Virus genome (UHGV): UHGV-0060500
From: a virus
DNA: 52,459 nucleotides
Direction: 5' to 3' (one strand)
In this document: positions 2,909-32,574 of the stretch, piece by piece
How positions within the stretch are numbered: the stretch's first letter is position 1
Layout: every line of letters begins with the position of its first letter
Made by a program: the position numbers and the translations under genes
The notes under the pieces: model-generated
Database searches by the model: none
Told to the model about the DNA's origin: nothing
Seen by the model: only the letters and a program-made list of their open reading frames with translations

Positions 2909-3102
2909 AATACACCGTTACTGTTTTTCCACTGCGCCCGCGCATACATGATCGCCTGCAAAGAAATTAGACGTGAGCTTGTCATGAAAGCGCTTTTTAA
3001 GTATCTCATATCAACCACAACAGGTTTATCAGGATCGTCACCGCGCATGTATTCCGCAATAGTGCTAAAGTCTTCAATGGTTAAATCTAACTCCTTATTC
3101 AT
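2905..3102 (-). CDS. Hypothetical protein (65 aa)
   Basis: ORF with start/stop coupling to neighbours in the nin-like region. Confidence 0.4.
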   Translation of the reverse strand: MNKELDLTIEDFSTIAEYMRGDDPDKPVVVDMRYLKSAFMTSSRLISLQAIMYARAQWKNSNGVL

Positions 3103-3111
3103 GATCGCCCC

Positions 3112-3318
3112 TCACACAATACGCATTGTGTTTCGTAATTCACCGCGCAGCACCCGCAGTGCATCACGCATTGGTACAAAAAACCGGTTAAATTTTACGT
3201 GTTTATATTTCCGCATCAGTGGCGGTGTATACACCTTTGCGTCGTATACTTCCCACGGATAATAAACACGCGTATCGTCGACAAACGTTTCAACTGAATA
3301 AAAGATTACCCGTCTCAT
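3112..3318 (-). CDS. Hypothetical protein (68 aa)
   Basis: ORF coupled to the upstream gene (overlap at 3315-3318). Confidence 0.35.
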   Translation of the reverse strand: MRRVIFYSVETFVDDTRVYYPWEVYDAKVYTPPLMRKYKHVKFNRFFVPMRDALRVLRGELRNTMRIV

Positions 3319-3908
3319 AATTCTAACCCCGTTTCACCGTTAAGTTTTTCGATCTCAAATACTGGTTTATCCGGTAACAGTCCGTTATTTTTCCGGTATT
3401 CATTCAGGCGGCTGTCAAAATCAAACGCGAGATCATTAGCGTGACCAAAGCGACCAGGTTTAAACAGTGAGTAAAAATTAAGGCCGTGTTTATTGGTATC
3501 TATGCAAAGCGTTTCATCCAGCACCATTAAACGCAGCGTGCGCGAAAGGTAATTCCACGGAATACCAGTTTCCGCGCTAATATCTCTCATTCGCTTTCTA
3601 ACGTTGTAGTCAGTAAATAACGCGGCTACACGCTCGCGTCGTTGTTCGTATAAATATTTAATTCGATAGCCCAGCAAGCGGCGGCGCGGGCCAAAATATG
3701 TATACACCCGCTCAACCAGATTAGTGTCGATCAGGTGTTTAACTGTTTCCGGCAAGCATCCGGCTTCGTCGTATTCCGCTGATAATCCGGTTTTCTGGCG
3801 TAGCTGGTGCATTGTTGCGATGCCATCAAGTTCAAGGATATTGATAATTTTTGCTTCAAGTTCAATGCTCATTGTTTTTCGCCTCGTTTTAAGCGCGAAA
3901 ACAGCCAC
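3315..3908 (-). CDS. Hypothetical protein (197 aa), replication/nin region
   Basis: Long ORF immediately downstream of the helicase gene in the same operon. Confidence 0.5.
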   Translation of the reverse strand: MAVFALKTRRKTMSIELEAKIINILELDGIATMHQLRQKTGLSAEYDEAGCLPETVKHLIDTNLVERVYTYFGPRRRLLGYRIKYLYEQRRERVAALFTDYNVRKRMRDISAETGIPWNYLSRTLRLMVLDETLCIDTNKHGLNFYSLFKPGRFGHANDLAFDFDSRLNEYRKNNGLLPDKPVFEIEKLNGETGLEL

Positions 3909-13547: not shown

Positions 13548-13869
13548 ATTACATAAGGCCTATGATAGCGAAACAAATAAGCTATCACTATTTATTGAGT
13601 TCGAACGCCGGATCGTGTGTGTACCGTGGGCGCGTCGCTTTAATGATGCAGCAGGGCGGCGACAGTTCGCGTTAGACATGTTGTTGCGCGGTTGCGGCCT
13701 TATGCGCCCGCTATCTGATTTAAAACGGATGATGCCGGGATCGTTCGGTCAGATTGATGAAATAGAAATAAGCCCGGAAGAACTGAAACGTGAGCGTGAT
13801 TTATTCCTTTCAAGCGAAGGAAACCCGTTTAATTCAGAAACTGAAATGAAATGGCATCATCCACTATAA
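13537..13869 (+). CDS. Hypothetical protein (110 aa)
   Basis: ORF in operon. Confidence 0.4.
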   Translation: MKIKLHKAYDSETNKLSLFIEFERRIVCVPWARRFNDAAGRRQFALDMLLRGCGLMRPLSDLKRMMPGSFGQIDEIEISPEELKRERDLFLSSEGNPFNSETEMKWHHPL

Positions 13870-14501
13870 GGGTAAATATTATGAACAATATCAAAACGGC
13901 TTATTCACTCGGCAGCGAAGGCATGTTAATTACTCGCTACACAGAGGACGCGAGCTTTCACGAAGTGGTAACTAAGGATTATCACGAAGTTTTAAAAGAT
14001 ATGGAAGCAGGAGTGTATGACAGTGACTTAAATCTGGCGCTACAGATTGTTGATATTATGATGGATGCATCAATCCGCGATTACGTGTCTTTAAGCATGG
14101 AAGAAAAAACATCGGTAGCGCGTTATGTGTTCTGCCTCACTTTCGTAAGACGCATGGAGGAGGAATTCGGACGCGCACCAGTGCCGGAAGATGTTGATCC
14201 GCTCGCGTTCGGAAGTGCTGTTATTTTCCCGTTGAACAAGGATCGGCTTGGCAGTGTTTCACTGCATTCTATGCGCGCCCTGATGAAAAAGGTCTTTGAG
14301 GTTAAGATGTTGCAGAAATTTATTGAGGAAGGACACGAAGAAGTGAACGTTAAGGCGTTTATTCCGGTGCTTTACGGAAATTTTGTTGGCGATGATATGC
14401 GCGCTAATGAATTAGGCGTACAGGCGGCTATAGCTACGCTTAACGAAGCAATGAAAAGTGCACAGCCTATTCATGAACAGGAAAAACGTGTACTGCATTA
14501 A
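13851..14501 (+). CDS. Hypothetical protein (about 200 aa; start uncertain, possibly 13881)
   Basis: Long ORF, no motif recognised. Confidence 0.45.
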   Translation: MASSTIRVNIMNNIKTAYSLGSEGMLITRYTEDASFHEVVTKDYHEVLKDMEAGVYDSDLNLALQIVDIMMDASIRDYVSLSMEEKTSVARYVFCLTFVRRMEEEFGRAPVPEDVDPLAFGSAVIFPLNKDRLGSVSLHSMRALMKKVFEVKMLQKFIEEGHEEVNVKAFIPVLYGNFVGDDMRANELGVQAAIATLNEAMKSAQPIHEQEKRVLH

Positions 14502-19455: not shown

Positions 19456-19634
19456 AAAACGAAGTTAAAGATCTGCAAATAGATATTCAGCGCGACGAGC
19501 GTGATTTAGAGACGGTCCGACAAATCCAGGCTTTCCACATGCGCGAATTACTTGCGCTGAAAGAGTTCGAAAGAAAGCTGGTGCAATCCATTTCTGATCG
19601 TAAACGTCTGGCGGCACGTTATGAGGGCAAATAA
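19452..19634 (+). CDS. Hypothetical coiled-coil protein (60 aa)
   Basis: ORF coupled to rusA. Confidence 0.35.
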   Translation: MKNEVKDLQIDIQRDERDLETVRQIQAFHMRELLALKEFERKLVQSISDRKRLAARYEGK

Positions 19635-20362
19635 TGAATTTAGAATCCATTCTAAAATTCCACTTTCCTAAATCACCGCGATTATCTGACGAAAGCCGGG
19701 GCACGTCCCCGGACGCTCTTAATACGACGGATGCGCTAACCGCTGCGGGTATGGCGCAATCGCGCGTAGAGCTTGGATATAGCGCTTTTTTAGGGAAGAT
19801 GGAACTATCACAAGCCGAAAAACACAGGGCCGTAGTTTTGCTTACAGAGCGTTTAAGGGCTATGGCGAAAGATTACGAATACGTGATGGAGTTAAACGAG
19901 GCACAACGCAATGATCTTATTATTCTTGTTGCCGTTTTCGCATTTCGGGATTATTGCCAGAGTGCGGCGACCGAAAAAGTTTGCCCTAAGTGCGGCGGTC
20001 ACGGGCATTTACCAAATCCATATGGCGAATACACATCAACAATTTGCGCACGGTGCGGCGGCAAAGGCTACGTTAAAAACCATTGCCAACGTTGCAAGGG
20101 GCGCGGCGAAGTACCGGATAAAACAGCCAGCGAAGCGGCGGAAATGCCAGTATTCAAAACGTGCCAGCATTGCGGCGGGCGCGGGTACTCGCGTTACCCT
20201 GTAGATCTTGTCCGGCAGGCAGTTAATCAGCTTGTTTTCCCGGTGAGCCGATCAACATGGTGGAAGAAATACCGTGCTTTCTATGAAGACGCCATTGCTG
20301 AATTGTTCAAAGAAGAGGCGCGGGCTGACAACGAAATTAAACGAGTGACGCGGGGTGAATAA
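19634..20362 (+). CDS. Putative late-gene antiterminator Q-like protein with DnaJ-type CxxCxGxG zinc-finger repeats
   Basis: Four CxxCGG(H/K/R)G repeats (CPKCGGHG, CARCGGKG, CQRCKGRG, CQHCGGRG); position after ninG/rusA as in lambdoid phages; assignment is tentative. Confidence 0.4.
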   Translation: MNLESILKFHFPKSPRLSDESRGTSPDALNTTDALTAAGMAQSRVELGYSAFLGKMELSQAEKHRAVVLLTERLRAMAKDYEYVMELNEAQRNDLIILVAVFAFRDYCQSAATEKVCPKCGGHGHLPNPYGEYTSTICARCGGKGYVKNHCQRCKGRGEVPDKTASEAAEMPVFKTCQHCGGRGYSRYPVDLVRQAVNQLVFPVSRSTWWKKYRAFYEDAIAELFKEEARADNEIKRVTRGE

Positions 20363-25560: not shown

Positions 25561-25586
25561 ACCCGGCCCAGTGCCGGGTTTTTGCT
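25561..25586 (+). terminator. Hairpin plus T-tract immediately upstream of the lysis cassette (candidate late-operon terminator/antitermination site)
   Basis: ACCCGGCCCAGTGCCGGGT followed by TTTTGCTTTG, 18 bp before the holin start. Confidence 0.4.
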
Positions 25587-25603
25587 TTGTTGGAGGAAAA
25601 TCT

Positions 25604-25804
25604 ATGTTCGACAGAATACGGGAGGCGTGTGCGTATGTGACTGGGGCCGTAACTGCTTTTTTCGGCGCGATAACCATCAATGACATTGCCGTCTTTGTGG
25701 GTATTTTATCAACCGTAGGCACATTTGCCGTTAATTATTACTTCAAATCACAGGAGAACAAGCGAGCGCAAGAGGAACACGACGCGCGAATGGGGAATAA
25801 GTAA
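25604..25804 (+). CDS. Class II holin (pinholin-like)
   Basis: 66 aa, two TM helices then charged C-terminus (YFKSQENKRAQEEHDARMGNK); followed by a SAR endolysin; SD GGAGG. Confidence 0.7.
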   Translation: MFDRIREACAYVTGAVTAFFGAITINDIAVFVGILSTVGTFAVNYYFKSQENKRAQEEHDARMGNK

Positions 25805-26296
25805 ATGATTAGCCAATCGCTGAAAAACAAGATTGTTGCGGCGGCGGCTGGTGGGGCGATCGCTATTGCGGCGGTGATGATTAAGCCATTAGAGGGCGTG
25901 GAACACGATCCTTATCGTGATGTTGTTGGCGTATGGACTGTTTGCTACGGTCACACCGGAAAAGACATCATGCTTGGGAAGACTTACACGCAATCAGAAT
26001 GCGATGCTTTGTTGAACAAAGATCTACATAAGACCGCAAAAGCGATTGACCCATATATCAAAGTCGAAATATCAGATTTTACCCGCGCTGCACTTTATTC
26101 GTTCGCCTATAACGTAGGCGCAACCAACTTCAAAACATCAACCTTATTAAAGCTACTCAATGACGGCAAGAAATCAGAGGCGTGCGCACAGCTTAAGCGC
26201 TGGGTATACGCTGGCGGTAAGAAGTGGCAAGGCCTGGTTAACCGCCGCGAGGTTGAATATGCCGTTTGCGAATGGGGTGAGAAATGGACAAGGTGA
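25805..26296 (+). CDS. SAR endolysin (lysozyme, T4-lysozyme-like catalytic triad region)
   Basis: 163 aa; N-terminal signal-anchor-release helix [17 protein letters not shown], then E...D...T catalytic spacing ([16 protein letters not shown]). Confidence 0.8.
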
Positions 26297-26754
26297 AGAC
26301 GTTAATCATCGCCGTTGTTGTTTGCATTATTGCCGGACTAACCGCCGTAACGTGTTATTACCAGGGTGAGGCGGCAAGGTTACAGGAAGAAGTCACGGTG
26401 ACGAAAGGCGCACTGAAGACAGCAAGTAACACTATTCAGCAGATGAAGGAGCGAAACGCCGAACTGTCAAAACTTGATAAGAGGTATCACGATGAGATTA
26501 AAGCTATCAGATCTGACATTGCCGATCTGCGCACTGGCATTGATAACGGCACTATCAGGCTGCGCGTCAACGCAATACCGGTGCGAGTGTCTGACCCCAC
26601 CGGAACCGCCAGCGCCATTGATGGAGCCGCCTGTAGACTCACTCCCGACGCTGAATCGGCTTATCTATCCCTCAGAGAACAACTAAAAACGAAAGACGCT
26701 CAGATTACTGGTCTTCAGGACTACATCAAAACTCAGTGCTTACGCAAAGAATAA
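26284..26754 (+). CDS. Rz: Rz-like i-spanin
   Basis: 156 aa; N-terminal TM helix, coiled-coil periplasmic domain; embedded Rz1-like ORF in another frame. Confidence 0.75.
26474..26686 (+). CDS. Rz1: Rz1-like o-spanin lipoprotein (embedded in Rz); start probably the Met at 26492
   Basis: Lipobox LSGC followed by a Pro-rich sequence, entirely inside the Rz gene in the +1 frame. Confidence 0.7.
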   Translation: MIRGITMRLKLSDLTLPICALALITALSGCASTQYRCECLTPPEPPAPLMEPPVDSLPTLNRLIYPSENN

Positions 26755-27032
26755 CAGCGCGTGGACGTGTCGCCGTTTCTGCCAGCCAGCCATAACCGGG
26801 CCAATCCTTCCCGCGAGCGACGGCGGAAATTCAAAAACACGTAATACCGGATCAACAGTCCCATTAACAGGTCAGGCGCTACCTGGGTAGAAGAAAGCGC
26901 CATCCACCAATTTTATAAAATTCTGTAAACGGTACTCACACAGCGCCGTTTTCAGTGTTTTATAGCTGTTTTCACTCCCTGCGGTGTCCAGTTTTGCGGG
27001 GGTTATATTTTTCAGGATAGAGGAATATTCTG

Positions 27033-27575
27033 ATGGCTAAGGGTAAAGGCATTAAGTTGCCTCAATTCAAAGTCCCGCTCTTTGAGCATACAACAGTTTT
27101 CTTCTGCCCGACTCGCGACATGTTCTATGAATTTTGCGAAAAGGCAGGGATCCCAATCGAACCTGATTTCGAACTGGCTGGAGGATTGACGCTTACTTGC
27201 ACTGGTGAGAAAGGCGGTAACTTCTACGTGATCGCAGTATTCGACAATGAGTTGGGTACGCTGGTACATGAATGCGCCCACACTACATTCCACGTCTTAA
27301 GTGATGTAGGCGTCGTGGCGACCACTGATCCAATTCATCCGGCAAACGAGACTTACGCTTACATGGTGGGCCGCATCTTTGACGCATTCTTCCCAATCCT
27401 GGCTGAATCAAACGAAGCGCAGGTTGCAGCAATGCAGGCGGCTGAAGTCGTAGAGAAGGCATTAGAACAGGCAGAACAGCCGAAGGAAGAGGAAAAGCCC
27501 GCTAAGAAAGGCAAACGCAAGCCGAAAGCAAAAGATGCGCTTGTGCCGCGTGTAATGAGCTTTAAACGAGGCTGA
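27033..27575 (+). CDS. Hypothetical protein with HExxH motif and lysine-rich acidic/basic C-terminal tail
   Basis: 180 aa; LVHECAHTTFH (HExxH) and C-terminal EQAEQPKEEEKPAKKGKRKPKAK; SD GAGGAA. Confidence 0.5.
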   Translation: MAKGKGIKLPQFKVPLFEHTTVFFCPTRDMFYEFCEKAGIPIEPDFELAGGLTLTCTGEKGGNFYVIAVFDNELGTLVHECAHTTFHVLSDVGVVATTDPIHPANETYAYMVGRIFDAFFPILAESNEAQVAAMQAAEVVEKALEQAEQPKEEEKPAKKGKRKPKAKDALVPRVMSFKRG

Positions 27576-27577
27576 TT

Positions 27578-28154
27578 ATGGACGCTTACATCATCGCCGG
27601 ATTAATTGGTATTCTGTATTTCTGGTGAGTTTTGTTATTGCCGTACTGATAACCGTAAAGAGCAAGTATTAGATGTGGTGGCAATATGATTGACCCGCTA
27701 ATTATCCTTTCTGCCTGCGTCGCTGTATGGCTGGCGATCATGATATTCATTGAAAGCTGAAGGTATCCACAATGAACGCATACGAAATGCTATTGCTGGT
27801 GGCTGTTATTACAGTTATTGCCGTAGATGTTTATCGGGAGTTTAAAAAATGAAATGGCTTGATTTCTTTTTCCTGATCGTTGCGATTGTTCTCACTATGA
27901 CCGCGCTTGCTCAATAGGTGAAAGCATGAACGCTATTGATATTATGTTGATCGTGTGTACCGTTGCATTAGTTATTATTGGGGTGATTATCAATGTCTGA
28001 TGGTGATTTCTTAATCATGGCTATATGCACGCTGTTAACTGTTATTGTTTTCTTCGCGTAAAGGTAAACAATGAAAGAATTATTCGATTGGTTGGAAGTA
28101 TTAACATACTGTGCAAGTTTTGTTGCTTGCGTATATATCATCAATAAATATTGA
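27578..28154 (+). other. Array of seven tandem micro-ORFs encoding 16-27 aa hydrophobic peptides (27578-27628, 27686-27760, 27772-27852, 27849-27917, 27926-28000, 27993-28061, 28071-28154)
   Basis: Each ATG is preceded by an SD-like purine run; peptides MDAYIIAGLIGILYFW, MIDPLIILSACVAVWLAIMIFIES, MNAYEMLLLVAVITVIAVDVYREFKK, MKWLDFFFLIVAIVLTMTALAQ, MNAIDIMLIVCTVALVIIGVIINV, MSDGDFLIMAICTLLTVIVFFA, MKELFDWLEVLTYCASFVACVYIINKY. Confidence 0.4.
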
Positions 28155-28164
28155 GAGGTGAATT

Positions 28165-28680
28165 ATGGCCCGCACTAAAAAGGCAAAAGCTGACGACAAA
28201 AAGCCAGCCGCAAAAAGGGTGGGCCGTCCGCATGGTTATACCGAAGAAAAGGCGTTAGAAATCTGTGAACTGGTGGCGGACGGTCAGAGCGTTAACAAAA
28301 TTTCGAAGATGCCTGGTATGCCTACCCGTTCAACAATCCTGAAATGGTTTAGAGACGTGCCGGAATTCTCGGACATGTACATGCGCGCGAAGGAAATCGG
28401 CTTCGAGGTATTAGCTGATGAGATCCTCGATATAGCTGATGATGCTAAGAACGTTGATAAAGACCAACTACGCCGCCACCAATTAATGATTGAAACGCGT
28501 AAATGGTTATTGGCTAAGCTACAACCGCGCAAATACGGCGAACGCGTCACACAGGAGATCGTCGGTAACAAGGAAGAAGCACCCGTCCAGGTAGAAGTAA
28601 ATCAGACTACTGTCCTTGAGATAATCGATAACCTGAATAAGGAGTACAATACTCATGGAGACTGCGACGACAAAGATTGA
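28165..28680 (+). CDS. Terminase small subunit
   Basis: 171 aa; N-terminal basic HTH-like region (GRPHGYTEEKALEICELVADGQSVNKISKMPGMPTRSTI), immediately upstream of and overlapping the large subunit. Confidence 0.75.
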   Translation: MARTKKAKADDKKPAAKRVGRPHGYTEEKALEICELVADGQSVNKISKMPGMPTRSTILKWFRDVPEFSDMYMRAKEIGFEVLADEILDIADDAKNVDKDQLRRHQLMIETRKWLLAKLQPRKYGERVTQEIVGNKEEAPVQVEVNQTTVLEIIDNLNKEYNTHGDCDDKD

Positions 28681-30169
28681 CAGAGAGGTTCTAAGGGGGT
28701 TGTGTGTTAAAGGTTGTGCTCCCAAAGACATATCAGCACCTTTGTTTTTTAGTTCCTACTTTTATAAGCAACAGGTTGGCAAGGACTTTTTGGTTGGGCG
28801 TCATCACAGAATAATTGCCGATACGCTACAACGAGTTATTAATGGTGAAATCACCAGGTTGATAATCAACATCCCACCGGGCTATGGCAAAACAATGATT
28901 GCCACAATTCACATGATGGCCCGCTGCCTCGCAATAGAACCCCGCACCAGATTCCTGCATGTATCGTATTCACACGGACTCGCCTTGCTTAATTCCTCAG
29001 AGACAAGAAACATAATCACGATGCCGCAATATCAGGAATTGTGGCCTATGCAAATGCGCAACGATTCGAACGCGAAAAACCTGTGGTGGACCACTCAGGG
29101 TGGCGGCGTGTATGCGACGTCATCGCTTGGACAGGTGACAGGGTTCCGCGCCGGGTACATGGAACCTGGGTTTAACGGCGCAATGATTATTGATGACCCC
29201 CTGAAACCAGCTGACGCTTATTCTGATGTGGTGCGAAAGCAGGTTAATACCAATTACAACGACACGCTTTCTTCGCGCCTGGCTGTGCAAACAACGCCAG
29301 TGATCGTCATCATGCAGCGTATCCACTACGATGATTTATCCGGCTACCTGTTACGTGGCGGTAGTGGTGAGAAATGGCATCACCTTTGCCTGCCAGTGAA
29401 GATCGACAACAGTCTTGACTATTGGGATCTGTACCCGGAAAACAAATTCGCTATTCCTGTTCCTCACAACCTGCCGGATGGCTGGCTATGGTTGCATAAG
29501 CATAGTGATAAAGATGAATCAACTCTTAAATCACATCGCCGAACATTCGAAGCTCAATATATGCAGTGTCCGCGCAAGTTCGATCAAGAGGGCGCATTGT
29601 GGACTGAAGCGATGATAACCGCCGCGCACATGATGCAGATAACGCAGGAGAAAATTCGCACGGTGATAGCCATCGACCCGGCGACAACATCATCTGATGA
29701 GTCAGACGAAACAGGGATTGTAGCCTGTTCCGCTTATGGTGGTGGCAAGAATGCTCAGTATTCAGTAGACGGTGACTACTCAGGCCGCATGTCACCTAAT
29801 GACTGGGCGCAAGCAGCAATGAACGCCTACAACATCCATGAAGCTGACGCGATGGTTATCGAAACCAACCAGGGTGGTGATATGGCAGAGGCCACACTAC
29901 GCAATGCAGGATTTAAGGGCCGCATTGTTAAGGTGCACGCAAGCAAGGGTAAATTTGCCCGCGCCGAACCAATATCTGCATTGTATGCACAGGGTAGGGT
30001 AGCCCACACTGGCAGCCTGTACACGCTGGAAAATCAAATGATGGAATATGTGCCAGCCACCGCTAAAAAATCCCCTGACCGTATGGATGCTATGGTATGG
30101 GGTATCACTGAACTAAGCCAGCCACAGGCGATGGGCCTCATGTTACCTAAGCGCCTGCGAGGGTTTTAA
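28655..30169 (+). CDS. Terminase large subunit
   Basis: 504 aa; Walker A-like PPGYGKTM, ATPase then nuclease domain arrangement. Confidence 0.85.
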   Translation: METATTKIDREVLRGLCVKGCAPKDISAPLFFSSYFYKQQVGKDFLVGRHHRIIADTLQRVINGEITRLIINIPPGYGKTMIATIHMMARCLAIEPRTRFLHVSYSHGLALLNSSETRNIITMPQYQELWPMQMRNDSNAKNLWWTTQGGGVYATSSLGQVTGFRAGYMEPGFNGAMIIDDPLKPADAYSDVVRKQVNTNYNDTLSSRLAVQTTPVIVIMQRIHYDDLSGYLLRGGSGEKWHHLCLPVKIDNSLDYWDLYPENKFAIPVPHNLPDGWLWLHKHSDKDESTLKSHRRTFEAQYMQCPRKFDQEGALWTEAMITAAHMMQITQEKIRTVIAIDPATTSSDESDETGIVACSAYGGGKNAQYSVDGDYSGRMSPNDWAQAAMNAYNIHEADAMVIETNQGGDMAEATLRNAGFKGRIVKVHASKGKFARAEPISALYAQGRVAHTGSLYTLENQMMEYVPATAKKSPDRMDAMVWGITELSQPQAMGLMLPKRLRGF

Positions 30170-30317
30170 GTTATTGATTATTATCAACTTCGAAAAATTT
30201 TCGAAGATGAACAATAATAATTCTCAATTAGCTACACAAAATCTGCCTCACAATCCCTCACGAATTTTTCTATTTTTCGCGTAGCAACGCGTAAACATGT
30301 ATTCAGGAGTAAACATT

Positions 30318-31688
30318 ATGCCATCCAATTTAGAATTGGCGGTTAATGCTGCCTTGTCTCAACGCCAGGCGGCCTTTGCCCGCTATGCAGCGGCACATCC
30401 GTTCACTATGGGGATAGATGCCAAACGTGATGCTGCGTGGAGTGAATACGGATTTAAAGAAGAGATCACGTATCACGATCTATACAAACTGTACAGACGC
30501 GGCGGCATCGCTCACGGTGCTGTAGAAAAGATTGTTACTACTTGCTGGCGCACCAAGCCAAAGATGATTGAAGGAACTGAAGACGAGAAAGCGAAAAAGG
30601 AAACACCGTGGGAAAGAGAAATCAAGAAGAAATTTAACAACAGATTTTGGCGCACTGTTGCTGAATGTGATCGCCGCCGCCTCATTGGTCGTTACTCTGG
30701 TCTGTTAATTCATATCAGAGATAACAAGCCGTGGGATCAGCCAGTGACAAAAGGCGTAGGCATTGCAAAATTTACCCCTGTGTGGGCTGGCGCTCTTACA
30801 CCGAAGGACTTCGAAGAAAACCCGGATAATGAAAACTATGGCCTGCCAACGTGGTGGGAATACAAAGAACGCATTAACAGTAAGACCATTGCCAGAAAGA
30901 TCCACCCTGACCGCATATTCATCTTTGGCGACTATTCTGATGATGTCATCGCTTTCCTTGAACCTTCCTACAACGCATTCGTATCACTGGAAAAAGTGGA
31001 AGGCGGTAGTGGTGAATCATTCCTGAAAAACGCAGCGCGTCAGCTTGCCATTTCGTTCGATAAAGAGATTGACTTCCGTTCCCTGGCTGCAACATACGAT
31101 TGCGACGTTACAGAGTTACGCGAAAGATTCAATGAGGCTACGGCTGAAATGAATAAGGGTAATGACGTAATGATGGCGTTACAGGGTGCGACAGTAAGCC
31201 CGCTGGTTACTGCCGTATCTGACCCGTCATCAACCTATGACGTAAACCTGCAAACCGCCGCCGCTGGTGTTGATATTCCAACCCGCATCTTGGTTGGGAA
31301 CCAGCAGGGAGAACGCGCATCAACCGAAGACCTGCGTTACTTCAACAGCCGCTGCATGACCCGCAGGGAGGAAATCGGTGGCGAGATTGAAGATCTGTTT
31401 CGCAAGATGGCAGATCTACGCCTTATCAGTATGCCAGTAGATGTATCAGTGCTATGGGACGACCTTAACGCCATGACCAAAGCAGAGCTACTGGAAGCCG
31501 CAGACAAGATGGCGCAAATCAATCAGGCTTGTTTGGCTACTGGTGAAGAAATATTTAGCGGCGATGAGATCCGCGAGGCTGCCGGATACGATGGCCCAGC
31601 CAGTGAAGTAGAAACGGAAGAGGATGACGATGATGAAGGTGAAGAAAATAATCAGGCGAATACCTCCAGCCGCGATAATGCCATCTAA
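30318..31688 (+). CDS. Portal protein
   Basis: About 456 aa following terminase, acidic C-terminus; SD AGGAGT before the ATG at 30318 (ORF-track start 30297). Confidence 0.7.
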   Translation: MPSNLELAVNAALSQRQAAFARYAAAHPFTMGIDAKRDAAWSEYGFKEEITYHDLYKLYRRGGIAHGAVEKIVTTCWRTKPKMIEGTEDEKAKKETPWEREIKKKFNNRFWRTVAECDRRRLIGRYSGLLIHIRDNKPWDQPVTKGVGIAKFTPVWAGALTPKDFEENPDNENYGLPTWWEYKERINSKTIARKIHPDRIFIFGDYSDDVIAFLEPSYNAFVSLEKVEGGSGESFLKNAARQLAISFDKEIDFRSLAATYDCDVTELRERFNEATAEMNKGNDVMMALQGATVSPLVTAVSDPSSTYDVNLQTAAAGVDIPTRILVGNQQGERASTEDLRYFNSRCMTRREEIGGEIEDLFRKMADLRLISMPVDVSVLWDDLNAMTKAELLEAADKMAQINQACLATGEEIFSGDEIREAAGYDGPASEVETEEDDDDEGEENNQANTSSRDNAI

Positions 31689-32574
31689 CACCGAAGACCC
31701 GACCATGACAGGGAAGTTAAGGTCGGGAGCTATTAAGCGTTTTAAAGCCTGCCTGAAGAAAGTTGCGGATCCGTATATCGCCATATTGGACAGAATCCAA
31801 TATAGCCTGGCTGTTAATAAGAAATACACCTTTCAGATTTACATGGATGAATTTCACGACATGCTGGAGGACGCAAGCGACATGATTGATGAGATATTCG
31901 AGTTAACAGACCCGGAAAACTTCTGGTTCTGGCAGAATTACGTGAAGGTGGCCTATCAGCGCGGCACGGCACAGGAATATGCCAACCTCGCTAACCAGTC
32001 TGTCACGTACTCAAGCGTTTATCCCGATGTATCTGCCGTACTATCAAGCACAACCTACCGCACGCGCCTTGCCCTGGTCCGTACCCGTGTATTTGAGGAA
32101 ATGCGCGGGCTGACAGCACAGATCAAAAAGGATATGGCCCGCCGACTAACTGAAGGCATGGCCCGTGGTTTAAACCCACTGGAAATAGCGCGCACATTGA
32201 ATCAGGAGACGCAATTACCGCTATACAGGTGTAAACGTATTGCTCGAACTGAAATATGCACAGCGTTACGCACAGCGCGTATGGATGAGGCAGAAGCGGC
32301 GACAGAAGAATTTAATCTGCGCACTATGCAAATGCACATTTCGGCATTATCACCGACTACCAGGCTATCGCACGCGCAGCGGCACGGTAAAACATACACC
32401 ATAGATGAGCAGCGCGAATGGTGGAGTAGATCCCCTAATTCAATTAACTGCAAATGTAGCACGATTACCGTATTAGTTGACGAAGACGGTAACATATTAA
32501 ACGAACGAATATTAGATCGGGCGCAAGAAAACTATAAAGTTGCGCACGCTAAATATGGCGAAGATTGGGAGTAA
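31624..32574 (+). CDS. Head morphogenesis protein (Mu F-like minor head protein); start uncertain
   Basis: 316 aa; C-terminal HGKTYT...CKCS pattern typical of the Mu F / SPP1 gp7 family; position after portal. Confidence 0.6.
   Translation: MTMMKVKKIIRRIPPAAIMPSNTEDPTMTGKLRSGAIKRFKACLKKVADPYIAILDRIQYSLAVNKKYTFQIYMDEFHDMLEDASDMIDEIFELTDPENFWFWQNYVKVAYQRGTAQEYANLANQSVTYSSVYPDVSAVLSSTTYRTRLALVRTRVFEEMRGLTAQIKKDMARRLTEGMARGLNPLEIARTLNQETQLPLYRCKRIARTEICTALRTARMDEAEAATEEFNLRTMQMHISALSPTTRLSHAQRHGKTYTIDEQREWWSRSPNSINCKCSTITVLVDEDGNILNERILDRAQENYKVAHAKYGEDWE

Follow-up and report, generated by a model that had tools for sequence, protein, structure and literature searches.

The HExxH gene and its conservation

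The window analysed here is the whole 52,459-nucleotide (nt) stretch of the virus genome UHGV-0060500, which is a mEp021-like (mEpimmI) coliphage of the group described in PMC11893012; in the region under study its DNA is 91% identical to mEp021-like coliphages and MagusPhagus. In the late-gene region of the window, between the lysis cassette and the terminase gene TerS, lies a complete open reading frame (ORF) of 180 amino acids (aa) on the plus strand (27033-27575; ATG start, TGA stop at 27573-27575), and a direct reading of the sequence places a Shine-Dalgarno-like GAGGA (27020-27024, +) 8 nt 5' of the ATG. The stretch LVHECAHTTFH, in which a first-pass annotation, made from the sequence alone, had reported a lone HExxH motif, was found at residues 77-87. 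The homologue mEp021_49, which has the same late-region position in mEp021 and MagusPhagus, is annotated in mEp021 as a 'hypothetical protein'. In this context, we present the product of this gene as a member of PHROG 1365, a family of unassigned function, and, judging from residue conservation and a structure model, as very probably a zincin-type metal enzyme.

Three segments can be distinguished along the plus-strand reading frame. Residues 1-125 (27033-27407) form a predicted mini-zincin catalytic-type domain, delimited from an AlphaFold2 model (m95c4ba3b3c39) and from the match to PHROG 1365. Within this domain, the HExxH residues (H79 E80 C81 A82 H83; 27267-27281), invariant in sets of 66, 89 and 11 sequences, lie on helix 74-91, and the stretch 27348-27362 at the start of helix 103-134 holds two further conserved residues, E106 (27348-27350), which is predicted to be the third metal ligand, and Y110 (27360-27362). 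Residues 126-148 (27408-27476) constitute an acidic Ala/Glu/Gln-rich helical linker with a net charge of -4, followed by a basic C-terminal tail of net charge +8, predicted to be disordered, at residues 149-180 (27477-27572; KKGKRKPKAK...LVPRVMSFKRG). The highly charged tail pointed out in the first-pass annotation, EQAEQPKEEEKPAKKGKRKPKAK...SFKRG, was likewise found, with 12 Lys/Arg versus 4 Asp/Glu in residues 149-180.

No other window ORF of 60 aa or more contains an HExxH motif; about 0.46 occurrences are expected from composition, the bare motif is statistically not significant, and the case consequently rests on conservation and structure. Purifying selection acts strongly on both domain and tail: protein identity among 49 related loci is 82-97% with a synonymous divergence of up to 0.5-0.9, codons 1-135 have a median ratio of non-synonymous to synonymous divergence (dN/dS) of 0.046, and the final 30 codons present a dN of 0.029 against a dS of 0.73 (tail dN/dS of ~0.04). 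Moreover, the gene is effectively a core gene of mEp-like phages, a homologue being present in all seven of the cultured mEp-like phages and in 34 of 5,426 complete E. coli genomes, the TerL of the same phage type being carried by 35 of the 5,426.

At the level of the family, G51, H79, E80, H83, E106 and Y110 are the only invariant positions in an alignment of 66 sequences (21-62% identity to the query), and all six are invariant across 11 separate phage lineages; in an alignment of 89 sequences, H79, E80, H83 and E106 are invariant and Y110 is nearly so. H87, which locally gives the motif the form HExxHxxxH, is variable across the family.

The linker varies in length through insertions of 10-14 aa, which gives proteins of 180, 190 or 194 aa in total, and the tail sequence KKGKRKPKAK-x-A-[LY]-VPRVMSFKRG hardly changes, even where a relative is only 62% identical overall; a second tail type, KEAKRKAKAKEPPKVEKYIVAGRSSYAMG, was identified in some mEp-like phages. 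Similar helical, Glu/Lys-rich tails with basic ends occur in several other lineages (P0121, P0142, P0201/P0274 and P0232). The idea that the tail is a portable targeting module found no support, as none of the other window ORFs has a similar C-terminus and tblastn searches of cultured phages with the tail returned only the same gene in mEp-like phages, short-motif searches being insensitive. There was also no sign, by inspection, of co-variation between tail type and TerS type, with tails of the 180-, 190- and 194-aa proteins and aligned TerS proteins of 160 and 171 aa occurring in all combinations.

Predicted fold and family membership

The AlphaFold2 model used here was built for a trimmed sequence of 135 residues with the 89-sequence alignment, and reached a predicted local distance difference test score (pLDDT) of 94 and a predicted template modelling score (pTM) of 0.88; an earlier AlphaFold model from 10 close relatives had a pLDDT of 72, and its long tail blurred the fold search. 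Strands were modelled at residues 11-13, 21-25, 51-57 and 63-69 and helices at residues 28-38, 74-91 and 103-134, with no additional subdomain. Strand 63-69 precedes the HExxH helix, and E106, 23 residues past H83, opens the next one. The modelled arrangement corresponds to the minimal zincin layout that Iyer et al. 2017 (PMC5512222) described for metallopeptidase domains of phages, with the HExxH on the first C-terminal helix of the core and a Glu ligand on the next. We read the protein as zincin-type because the HExxH helix follows a strand, an invariant Glu lies on the next helix, the model is of high pLDDT and the catalytic-type residues are invariant. The putative metallopeptidase or metal-binding protein of the first-pass annotation thus holds in its zincin form, supported by topology and invariance, and the structure prediction sets the motif in a zincin-type rather than a non-catalytic context; the ImmA/IrrE role that was also considered found no support, as set out below.

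The window protein matches PHROG 1365 with an E-value of 7.8e-31 (residues 3-131 versus profile positions 5-124 of 127), and seven distant relatives match it too (E 6e-23 to 1e-39). PHROG 1365 includes HK620 hkcC, ST64T orf-129, phage L Orf129, epsilon34 gp70, mEp021 gp49, RSB3 ORF49 and Det7 gp68, and the family is also present in N4-like, T7-like and Vi1-like phages. When 1.84 billion representative proteins were searched with a profile, 216 relatives were recovered at E<=1e-3, mostly of 110-140 aa and consisting of the domain alone; almost all are single-domain proteins of 110-200 aa, and the best stretch of the sole very large match (P0197, 6,837 aa) covers just profile positions 4-19. What members share is the invariant pattern G...HExxH...E...Y on a single domain of ~110-130 aa; unlike this plain form, the window protein and its mEp-like relatives add an acidic helix and basic tail of ~55-70 aa.

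The RefSeq record of P22 holds an intact, unannotated ORF of 121-125 aa (2965-3342 of our locus L051, equivalent to NC_002371.2 ~13849-14226, +, with an ATG at ~13861) between sieA and orf59a, which from its ATG reads identically to HK620 hkcC and is an HExxH family member. Furthermore, two paralogues were identified in some P22-like phages (ST160, SE1, UAB_Phi20, Phi75 and ST-87), one of the orf-129 type upstream of TerS and the other of the hkcC type in the immI region.

Single-sequence searches with the window protein gave nothing significant in Pfam, NCBIfam, PADLOC or PDB sequences; the PADLOC models had no matches among the window protein and four distant relatives, and the distant relatives P0122 and P0142, used as single queries, retrieved nothing from viral contigs. 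Searched with a profile, PDB sequences yielded zincins only, all of them sub-threshold (astacins, myroilysin and peptidyl-Lys metalloendopeptidase; E 0.15-1). With Foldseek against BFVD, 27 small phage proteins were matched at E<=1e-3, nearly all uncharacterised, and a few of the matches listed, at weaker E-values, were named SprT-like or metalloprotease. A core of ~85 residues superposes at 12% identity on M3 oligopeptidases (oligopeptidase A, neurolysin, Dcp) and other gluzincins, although the M3 enzymes, unlike the phage protein, are multidomain proteins of ~680 aa with a substrate channel. The minimal zincin scaffold of ~100 aa is shared with the minigluzincins (proabylysin/projannalysin type) and with the 'SprT-like protease' of Arthrobacter cluster AZ phages, which combines a small protease domain and a small C-terminal DNA-binding element (bioRxiv 10.1101/2025.05.26.655371). 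Literature searches for 'hkcC' returned only unrelated acronyms, and those on SprT-like phage proteases nothing on the PHROG 1365 family. PHROG 1365 itself is already catalogued, and automated pipelines have already flagged some of its members as metallopeptidase-like. From these searches and the model we conclude that the protein very probably represents a distinct, phage-specific, stand-alone mini-zincin family, with a complete complement of catalytic-type residues but outside every curated peptidase family.

The finding that Pfam, NCBIfam and PDB sequence searches yielded no curated peptidase model at threshold weighs against a peptidase, and leaves room for another metal enzyme, or for a structural or regulatory metal-binding protein that uses the HExxH...E site. 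Very small zincin-like proteins can have non-peptidase hydrolytic activities, and such an activity is conceivable here as well. Enzymes other than peptidases employ HExxH too, as is evident from the name of TIGR04267 (aKG-HExxH peptide beta-hydroxylase); this model was matched by ST64T orf-129 (E 0.007) and RSB3 ORF49 (E 0.04) with 14-16 bits, below its cutoff of 40 and limited to ~20-30 residues around the motif, and it was not matched by the window protein. That E80 is invariant along with the three predicted ligands, and that strands and helices follow the zincin arrangement, argues for hydrolytic catalysis of the zincin type, and we regard a non-peptidase function as quite improbable.

An anti-repressor protease of the ImmA/IrrE type, which would cleave a phage or host repressor to control induction, was weighed in the same way. 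The HExxH with a downstream Glu is as in Peptidase_M78, a feature that ImmA/IrrE and CapP of the cyclic-oligonucleotide-based anti-phage signalling system (CBASS) share with the window protein along with an association with mobile elements, and one of the 66 members matches PF06114 (E 0.099). The window protein has no M78 match and is much smaller than ImmA/IrrE domains; moreover, its gene lies in the late region, at least ~10 kb from the regulatory region, with Rz, micro-ORFs and TerS as neighbours and no repressor among them. This role thus appears extremely improbable.

Two further readings take their starting point from weak family matches. In the first, the protein would be a packaging-linked, DNA-tethered protease of the SprT/Wss1 type, whose tail binds DNA and whose enzyme clears tightly bound or cross-linked proteins off concatemeric DNA ahead of the terminase. 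The Pfam SprT-like model (PF10263) is matched weakly by 15 of the 66 members, a relative in nr is automatically named 'SprT-like family protein', as are some structural neighbours in BFVD, and both the window protein and SprT-like/Spartan/Wss1 proteins combine a small HExxH zincin domain with a basic, possibly nucleic-acid-binding extension. The lysine-rich tail, strongly constrained, and the helical tails with basic ends in several independent lineages also fit. The best of the matches has an E-value of 0.009, none reaches the gathering score (the family consensus obtains 12.3 bits versus 25.6), and the window protein has no match. SprT, Spartan and Wss1 have a third His ligand, and Spartan and Wss1 an adjacent zinc- or single-stranded DNA-binding subdomain. 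Here, by contrast, the predicted third ligand is a Glu 23 residues on, not a nearby His; H87 is not family-conserved, the model has no zinc-binding or single-stranded DNA-binding subdomain, and ~90% of members are tailless. We consider this reading unlikely, though not negligible.

In the second, the protein would be a conflict effector, a solo zincin-like metallopeptidase domain of the type found in phage 'polyvalent proteins', whose targets would be defence or housekeeping proteins of the host, to be cleaved, or effector proteins delivered along with it, to be processed. Its action would follow either early expression or packaging in the head with ejection alongside the DNA. In nr, one relative at 62% identity bears the automated name 'PolyVal Metallopeptidase superfamily domain'. 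The core fold agrees with the description in PMC5512222, in that the polyvalent-protein metallopeptidase domains (PF18818) likewise present an N-terminal helix, a three-stranded sheet, an HExxH helix and a Glu-bearing helix, are phage-borne and are encoded among virion or packaging genes; the family proteins are single-domain rather than part of large multidomain polyvalent proteins, and the same study reports solo versions of some polyvalent-protein domains among virion genes. MPTase-PolyVal (PF18818) is matched by one of the 66 members, at E 0.1, and by neither the window protein nor the family consensus, which speaks against this assignment, as do the lack of a PADLOC match and of known anti-defence homology. 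A conflict effector is nevertheless a possible, if somewhat unlikely, reading, and its genomic evidence is taken up below.

The late region and the micro-ORF array

Upstream of the HExxH gene, a Q-type antiterminator (19634-20362) is followed by small genes and then by the lysis cassette (25571-26754, +), with holin, lysozyme (25805-26296), Rz (26284-26754) and an Rz1-like gene (26474-26686). The latter is an out-of-frame, Rz1 (o-spanin)-like ORF (+) nested in Rz, whose lipoprotein-type signal ends in LSGC. A gap of 278 nt (26755-27032) separates Rz from the HExxH gene, and in this gap a consensus scan found no plus-strand terminator or promoter; the mEp021 annotation places a weak terminator (TERM_6, score 81) ~80-110 nt 5' of the homologue's start. 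The next conventional gene downstream is an Sf6-type TerS (28165-28680, +; Pfam PF20901 at E 1e-37, plus PF17289 and PF06381), followed by TerL (28655-30169), the portal gene (30297-31688), and genes for a MuF-like protein and the major capsid protein. Given this position, we infer that the HExxH gene would be expressed late in mEp021-like phages.

The reading frames of TerS and TerL overlap by 26 nt (28655-28680). The MuF-like ORF of the window (31624-32574) encodes 316 aa, and in a related locus (L053, 9491-10534) a MuF-like head protein of at least 635 aa carries an intein-splicing domain (PF14890). HNH_3 endonuclease genes occur at varying points of the lysis-to-terminase region (L053 3752-4273; L068 4739-5263 and 6563-7000; L067 7250-7753). 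Their insertion sites in mEp-like phages are the lysozyme-Rz junction, the space separating the HExxH gene from the micro-ORF array, and the TerS-TerL junction.

The interval between the HExxH gene and TerS is occupied by seven hydrophobic micro-ORFs (27578-28154, +), which we treat as context rather than as a functional part of the HExxH gene. They encode 16, 24, 26, 22, 24, 22 and 27 aa, start with ATG and are each preceded by a purine-rich, Shine-Dalgarno-like stretch; the peptides resemble a single transmembrane-like hydrophobic helix that frequently bears an acidic residue close to the N-terminus, and lack leader/core organisation. That the HExxH ORF ends just before the first of them agrees with the first-pass annotation, the ATG lying at 27578 after a spacer of 2 nt. 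The first micro-ORF (16 aa, 27578-27628) overlaps a GTG-started hydrophobic ORF of 15 aa (27625-27672), and it may have been split by a frameshift, since in relatives it is 22-31 aa long. The last peptide, MKELFDWLEVLTYCASFVACVYIINKY, stands directly before TerS, including in L068 and L069, and is identical in the four loci compared.

A proposal of that annotation, itself offered as speculative, was that the HExxH protein and the short peptides form a processing or immunity arrangement, in other words that the micro-ORF peptides are processed or modified by the protein, or that it gives immunity to them, in the manner of a cassette for ribosomally synthesised and post-translationally modified peptides or peptide toxins. 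The common strand and the 2-nt spacer are in line with it, as are the weak motif-level matches of ST64T orf-129 and RSB3 ORF49 to TIGR04267, and micro-ORFs lie between the HExxH gene and TerS in all 49 mEp-like loci, in 3 to 13 copies. The mEp-like contig L067 has two within an interval of 213 nt, so that the copy number ranges from 2 to 13 against a constant enzyme gene. In the sampled loci, the arrays were detected only in closely related mEp-like phages, and hydrophobic micro-ORFs are absent downstream of the family member in ST64T, HK620, RSB3, Possum, Bp4, Det7 and three metagenomic lineages. Since the array is confined to mEp-like phages and absent downstream of the gene in these nine other lineages, its co-occurrence with the HExxH gene looks like synteny within one phage group, due to shared ancestry. 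Furthermore, an HNH endonuclease gene stands between the HExxH gene and the array in L068 and L069, and in L068 the array stays by TerS; the array tracks TerS rather than the HExxH gene. The 16-27-aa peptides with no leader/core organisation, an enzyme devoid of signal peptide or membrane segment, and the lack of a TIGR04267 match in the window protein also run counter to a peptide cassette, which appears largely refuted by the comparative data and is in our view very improbable. Consequently, the tempting link between enzyme and array is removed, and the array is to be studied as a separate, TerS-associated feature.

Gene neighbourhoods, candidate mechanism and implications

In other phages, the family member is repeatedly located near packaging genes. 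In ST64T, L, epsilon34 and g341c the order is Rz, orf118, member, Dec and TerS, and in a P22-like metagenomic phage (L056) the member lies directly before putative TerS and TerL genes. Another locus (L060) presents TerS, TerL, member, portal and a gene for an ART-PolyVal protein, and the Pectobacterium N4-like phage Possum presents TerS, a 65-aa ORF, member and TerL. Two loci with an SPP1-type portal (L058 and L061) carry, in the same operon, two ParB_N genes, an ATPase gene and a member of 181 aa with a tail, with TerL four genes later. In RSB3 and T7-like Ralstonia phages the member follows TerL, endolysin and Rz at the right genome end. An exception is hkcC of P22 and HK620, which is flanked by ejection gene 16/sieA and by mnt/tailspike. 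Overall, in ~7 of 11 sampled lineages the gene has a terminase subunit gene in the same orientation no more than a few genes away, and by inspection this proximity looks more frequent than chance.

Because of this recurrent placement by terminase and portal genes, we propose a role at the packaging or head-assembly stage, or as an effector. The reading that we favour, as reasonably probable from sequence and model, is that the window protein would be a small, cytoplasmic, stand-alone enzyme of the zinc-metallopeptidase type with a zincin (gluzincin-like) fold, belonging to the widespread PHROG 1365 family and acting at the packaging or assembly stage or as an effector.

Several observations weigh against this reading. 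The hkcC genes of P22 and HK620 are located in the immI region, well away from the terminase genes; Det7 gp68 stands among unannotated genes with no informative neighbours; and in Bp4, ECBP1 and phCDa the member is divergent from TerL, among small genes, where its expression timing may differ and possibly be early. The lineages examined for context are a non-random sample, and the neighbourhood of the terminase genes in temperate phages is also a common site for accessory genes. In mEp021, band-based mass spectrometry of the virion reported 16 structural proteins, and gp49 is still 'hypothetical'; packaging of the homologue in the virion thus has no support, although the gel-band basis does not exclude it. 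Finally, with ~90% of the family lacking a tail, tethering through the tail cannot be the general mechanism.

The same neighbourhoods bear on the conflict effector and on the SprT/Wss1-like protease. An effector agrees with the member and the ART-PolyVal gene of L060 being separated by the portal gene only, with hkcC of P22 and HK620 lying just after the ejection-protein gene 16 and beside sieA, with the two paralogues of some P22-like phages, and with the small-gene clusters in which N4-like phages place their member. It agrees less well with a core syntenic gene of mEp-like phages, where a patchy accessory gene would be expected, or with a homologue missing from the 16 reported mEp021 virion proteins. 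The SprT/Wss1-like version is favoured by terminase or portal adjacency in at least six lineages, including positions inside TerS-TerL and TerL-portal junctions, and disfavoured by the distance of P22 hkcC from the terminase genes. On present data, the polyvalent-type effector and the SprT/Wss1-like version cannot be separated. A wider form of the packaging idea, rather improbable in our estimation, would make PHROG 1365 a family of phage-specific miniature metalloproteases tied to packaging. Tethered by basic tails or via the machinery of terminase and portal, they would strip DNA-bound or cross-linked proteins from the concatemer before the motor, and so be viral counterparts of the SprT/Wss1-type proteases that act on DNA-protein crosslinks; if true, it would explain why the gene repeatedly sits beside, and in some cases between, TerS, TerL and portal genes in unrelated phages.

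A head-maturation protease was rejected as a general role, as P22-like phages carry members and P22 hkcC lies away from the head genes. To our knowledge, P22 capsid assembly involves no proteolytic maturation.

For the favoured zinc-metallopeptidase-type enzyme, a mechanism can be outlined in conditional terms. A metal ion would be held by H79 and H83 of the active-site helix together with E106 of the helix that follows; E80 would serve as general base, with Y110 assisting catalysis, and strand 63-69, just before the HExxH helix, would dock an extended substrate chain. The enzyme would thus act as a cytoplasmic, Zn-dependent endopeptidase, whose substrate would most likely be a protein of the host or of the phage. 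The basic tail of the mEp clade may tether the ~125-aa enzyme to a polyanion (DNA, RNA or a membrane surface) or to a partner protein, and the adjacency to terminase and portal genes would suggest action at the DNA-packaging or head-assembly stage, or as an effector made alongside the virion.

In brief, these data provide a testable identity for a 'hypothetical protein' encoded by a core gene of gut-prevalent mEpimmI coliphages, within a family that reaches the model phages P22, HK620, ST64T, L and epsilon34. The terminase adjacency and the constrained basic tail offer two experimental handles on its function, and a stand-alone zincin of ~110-130 aa would be near the smallest metalloprotease scaffold known.

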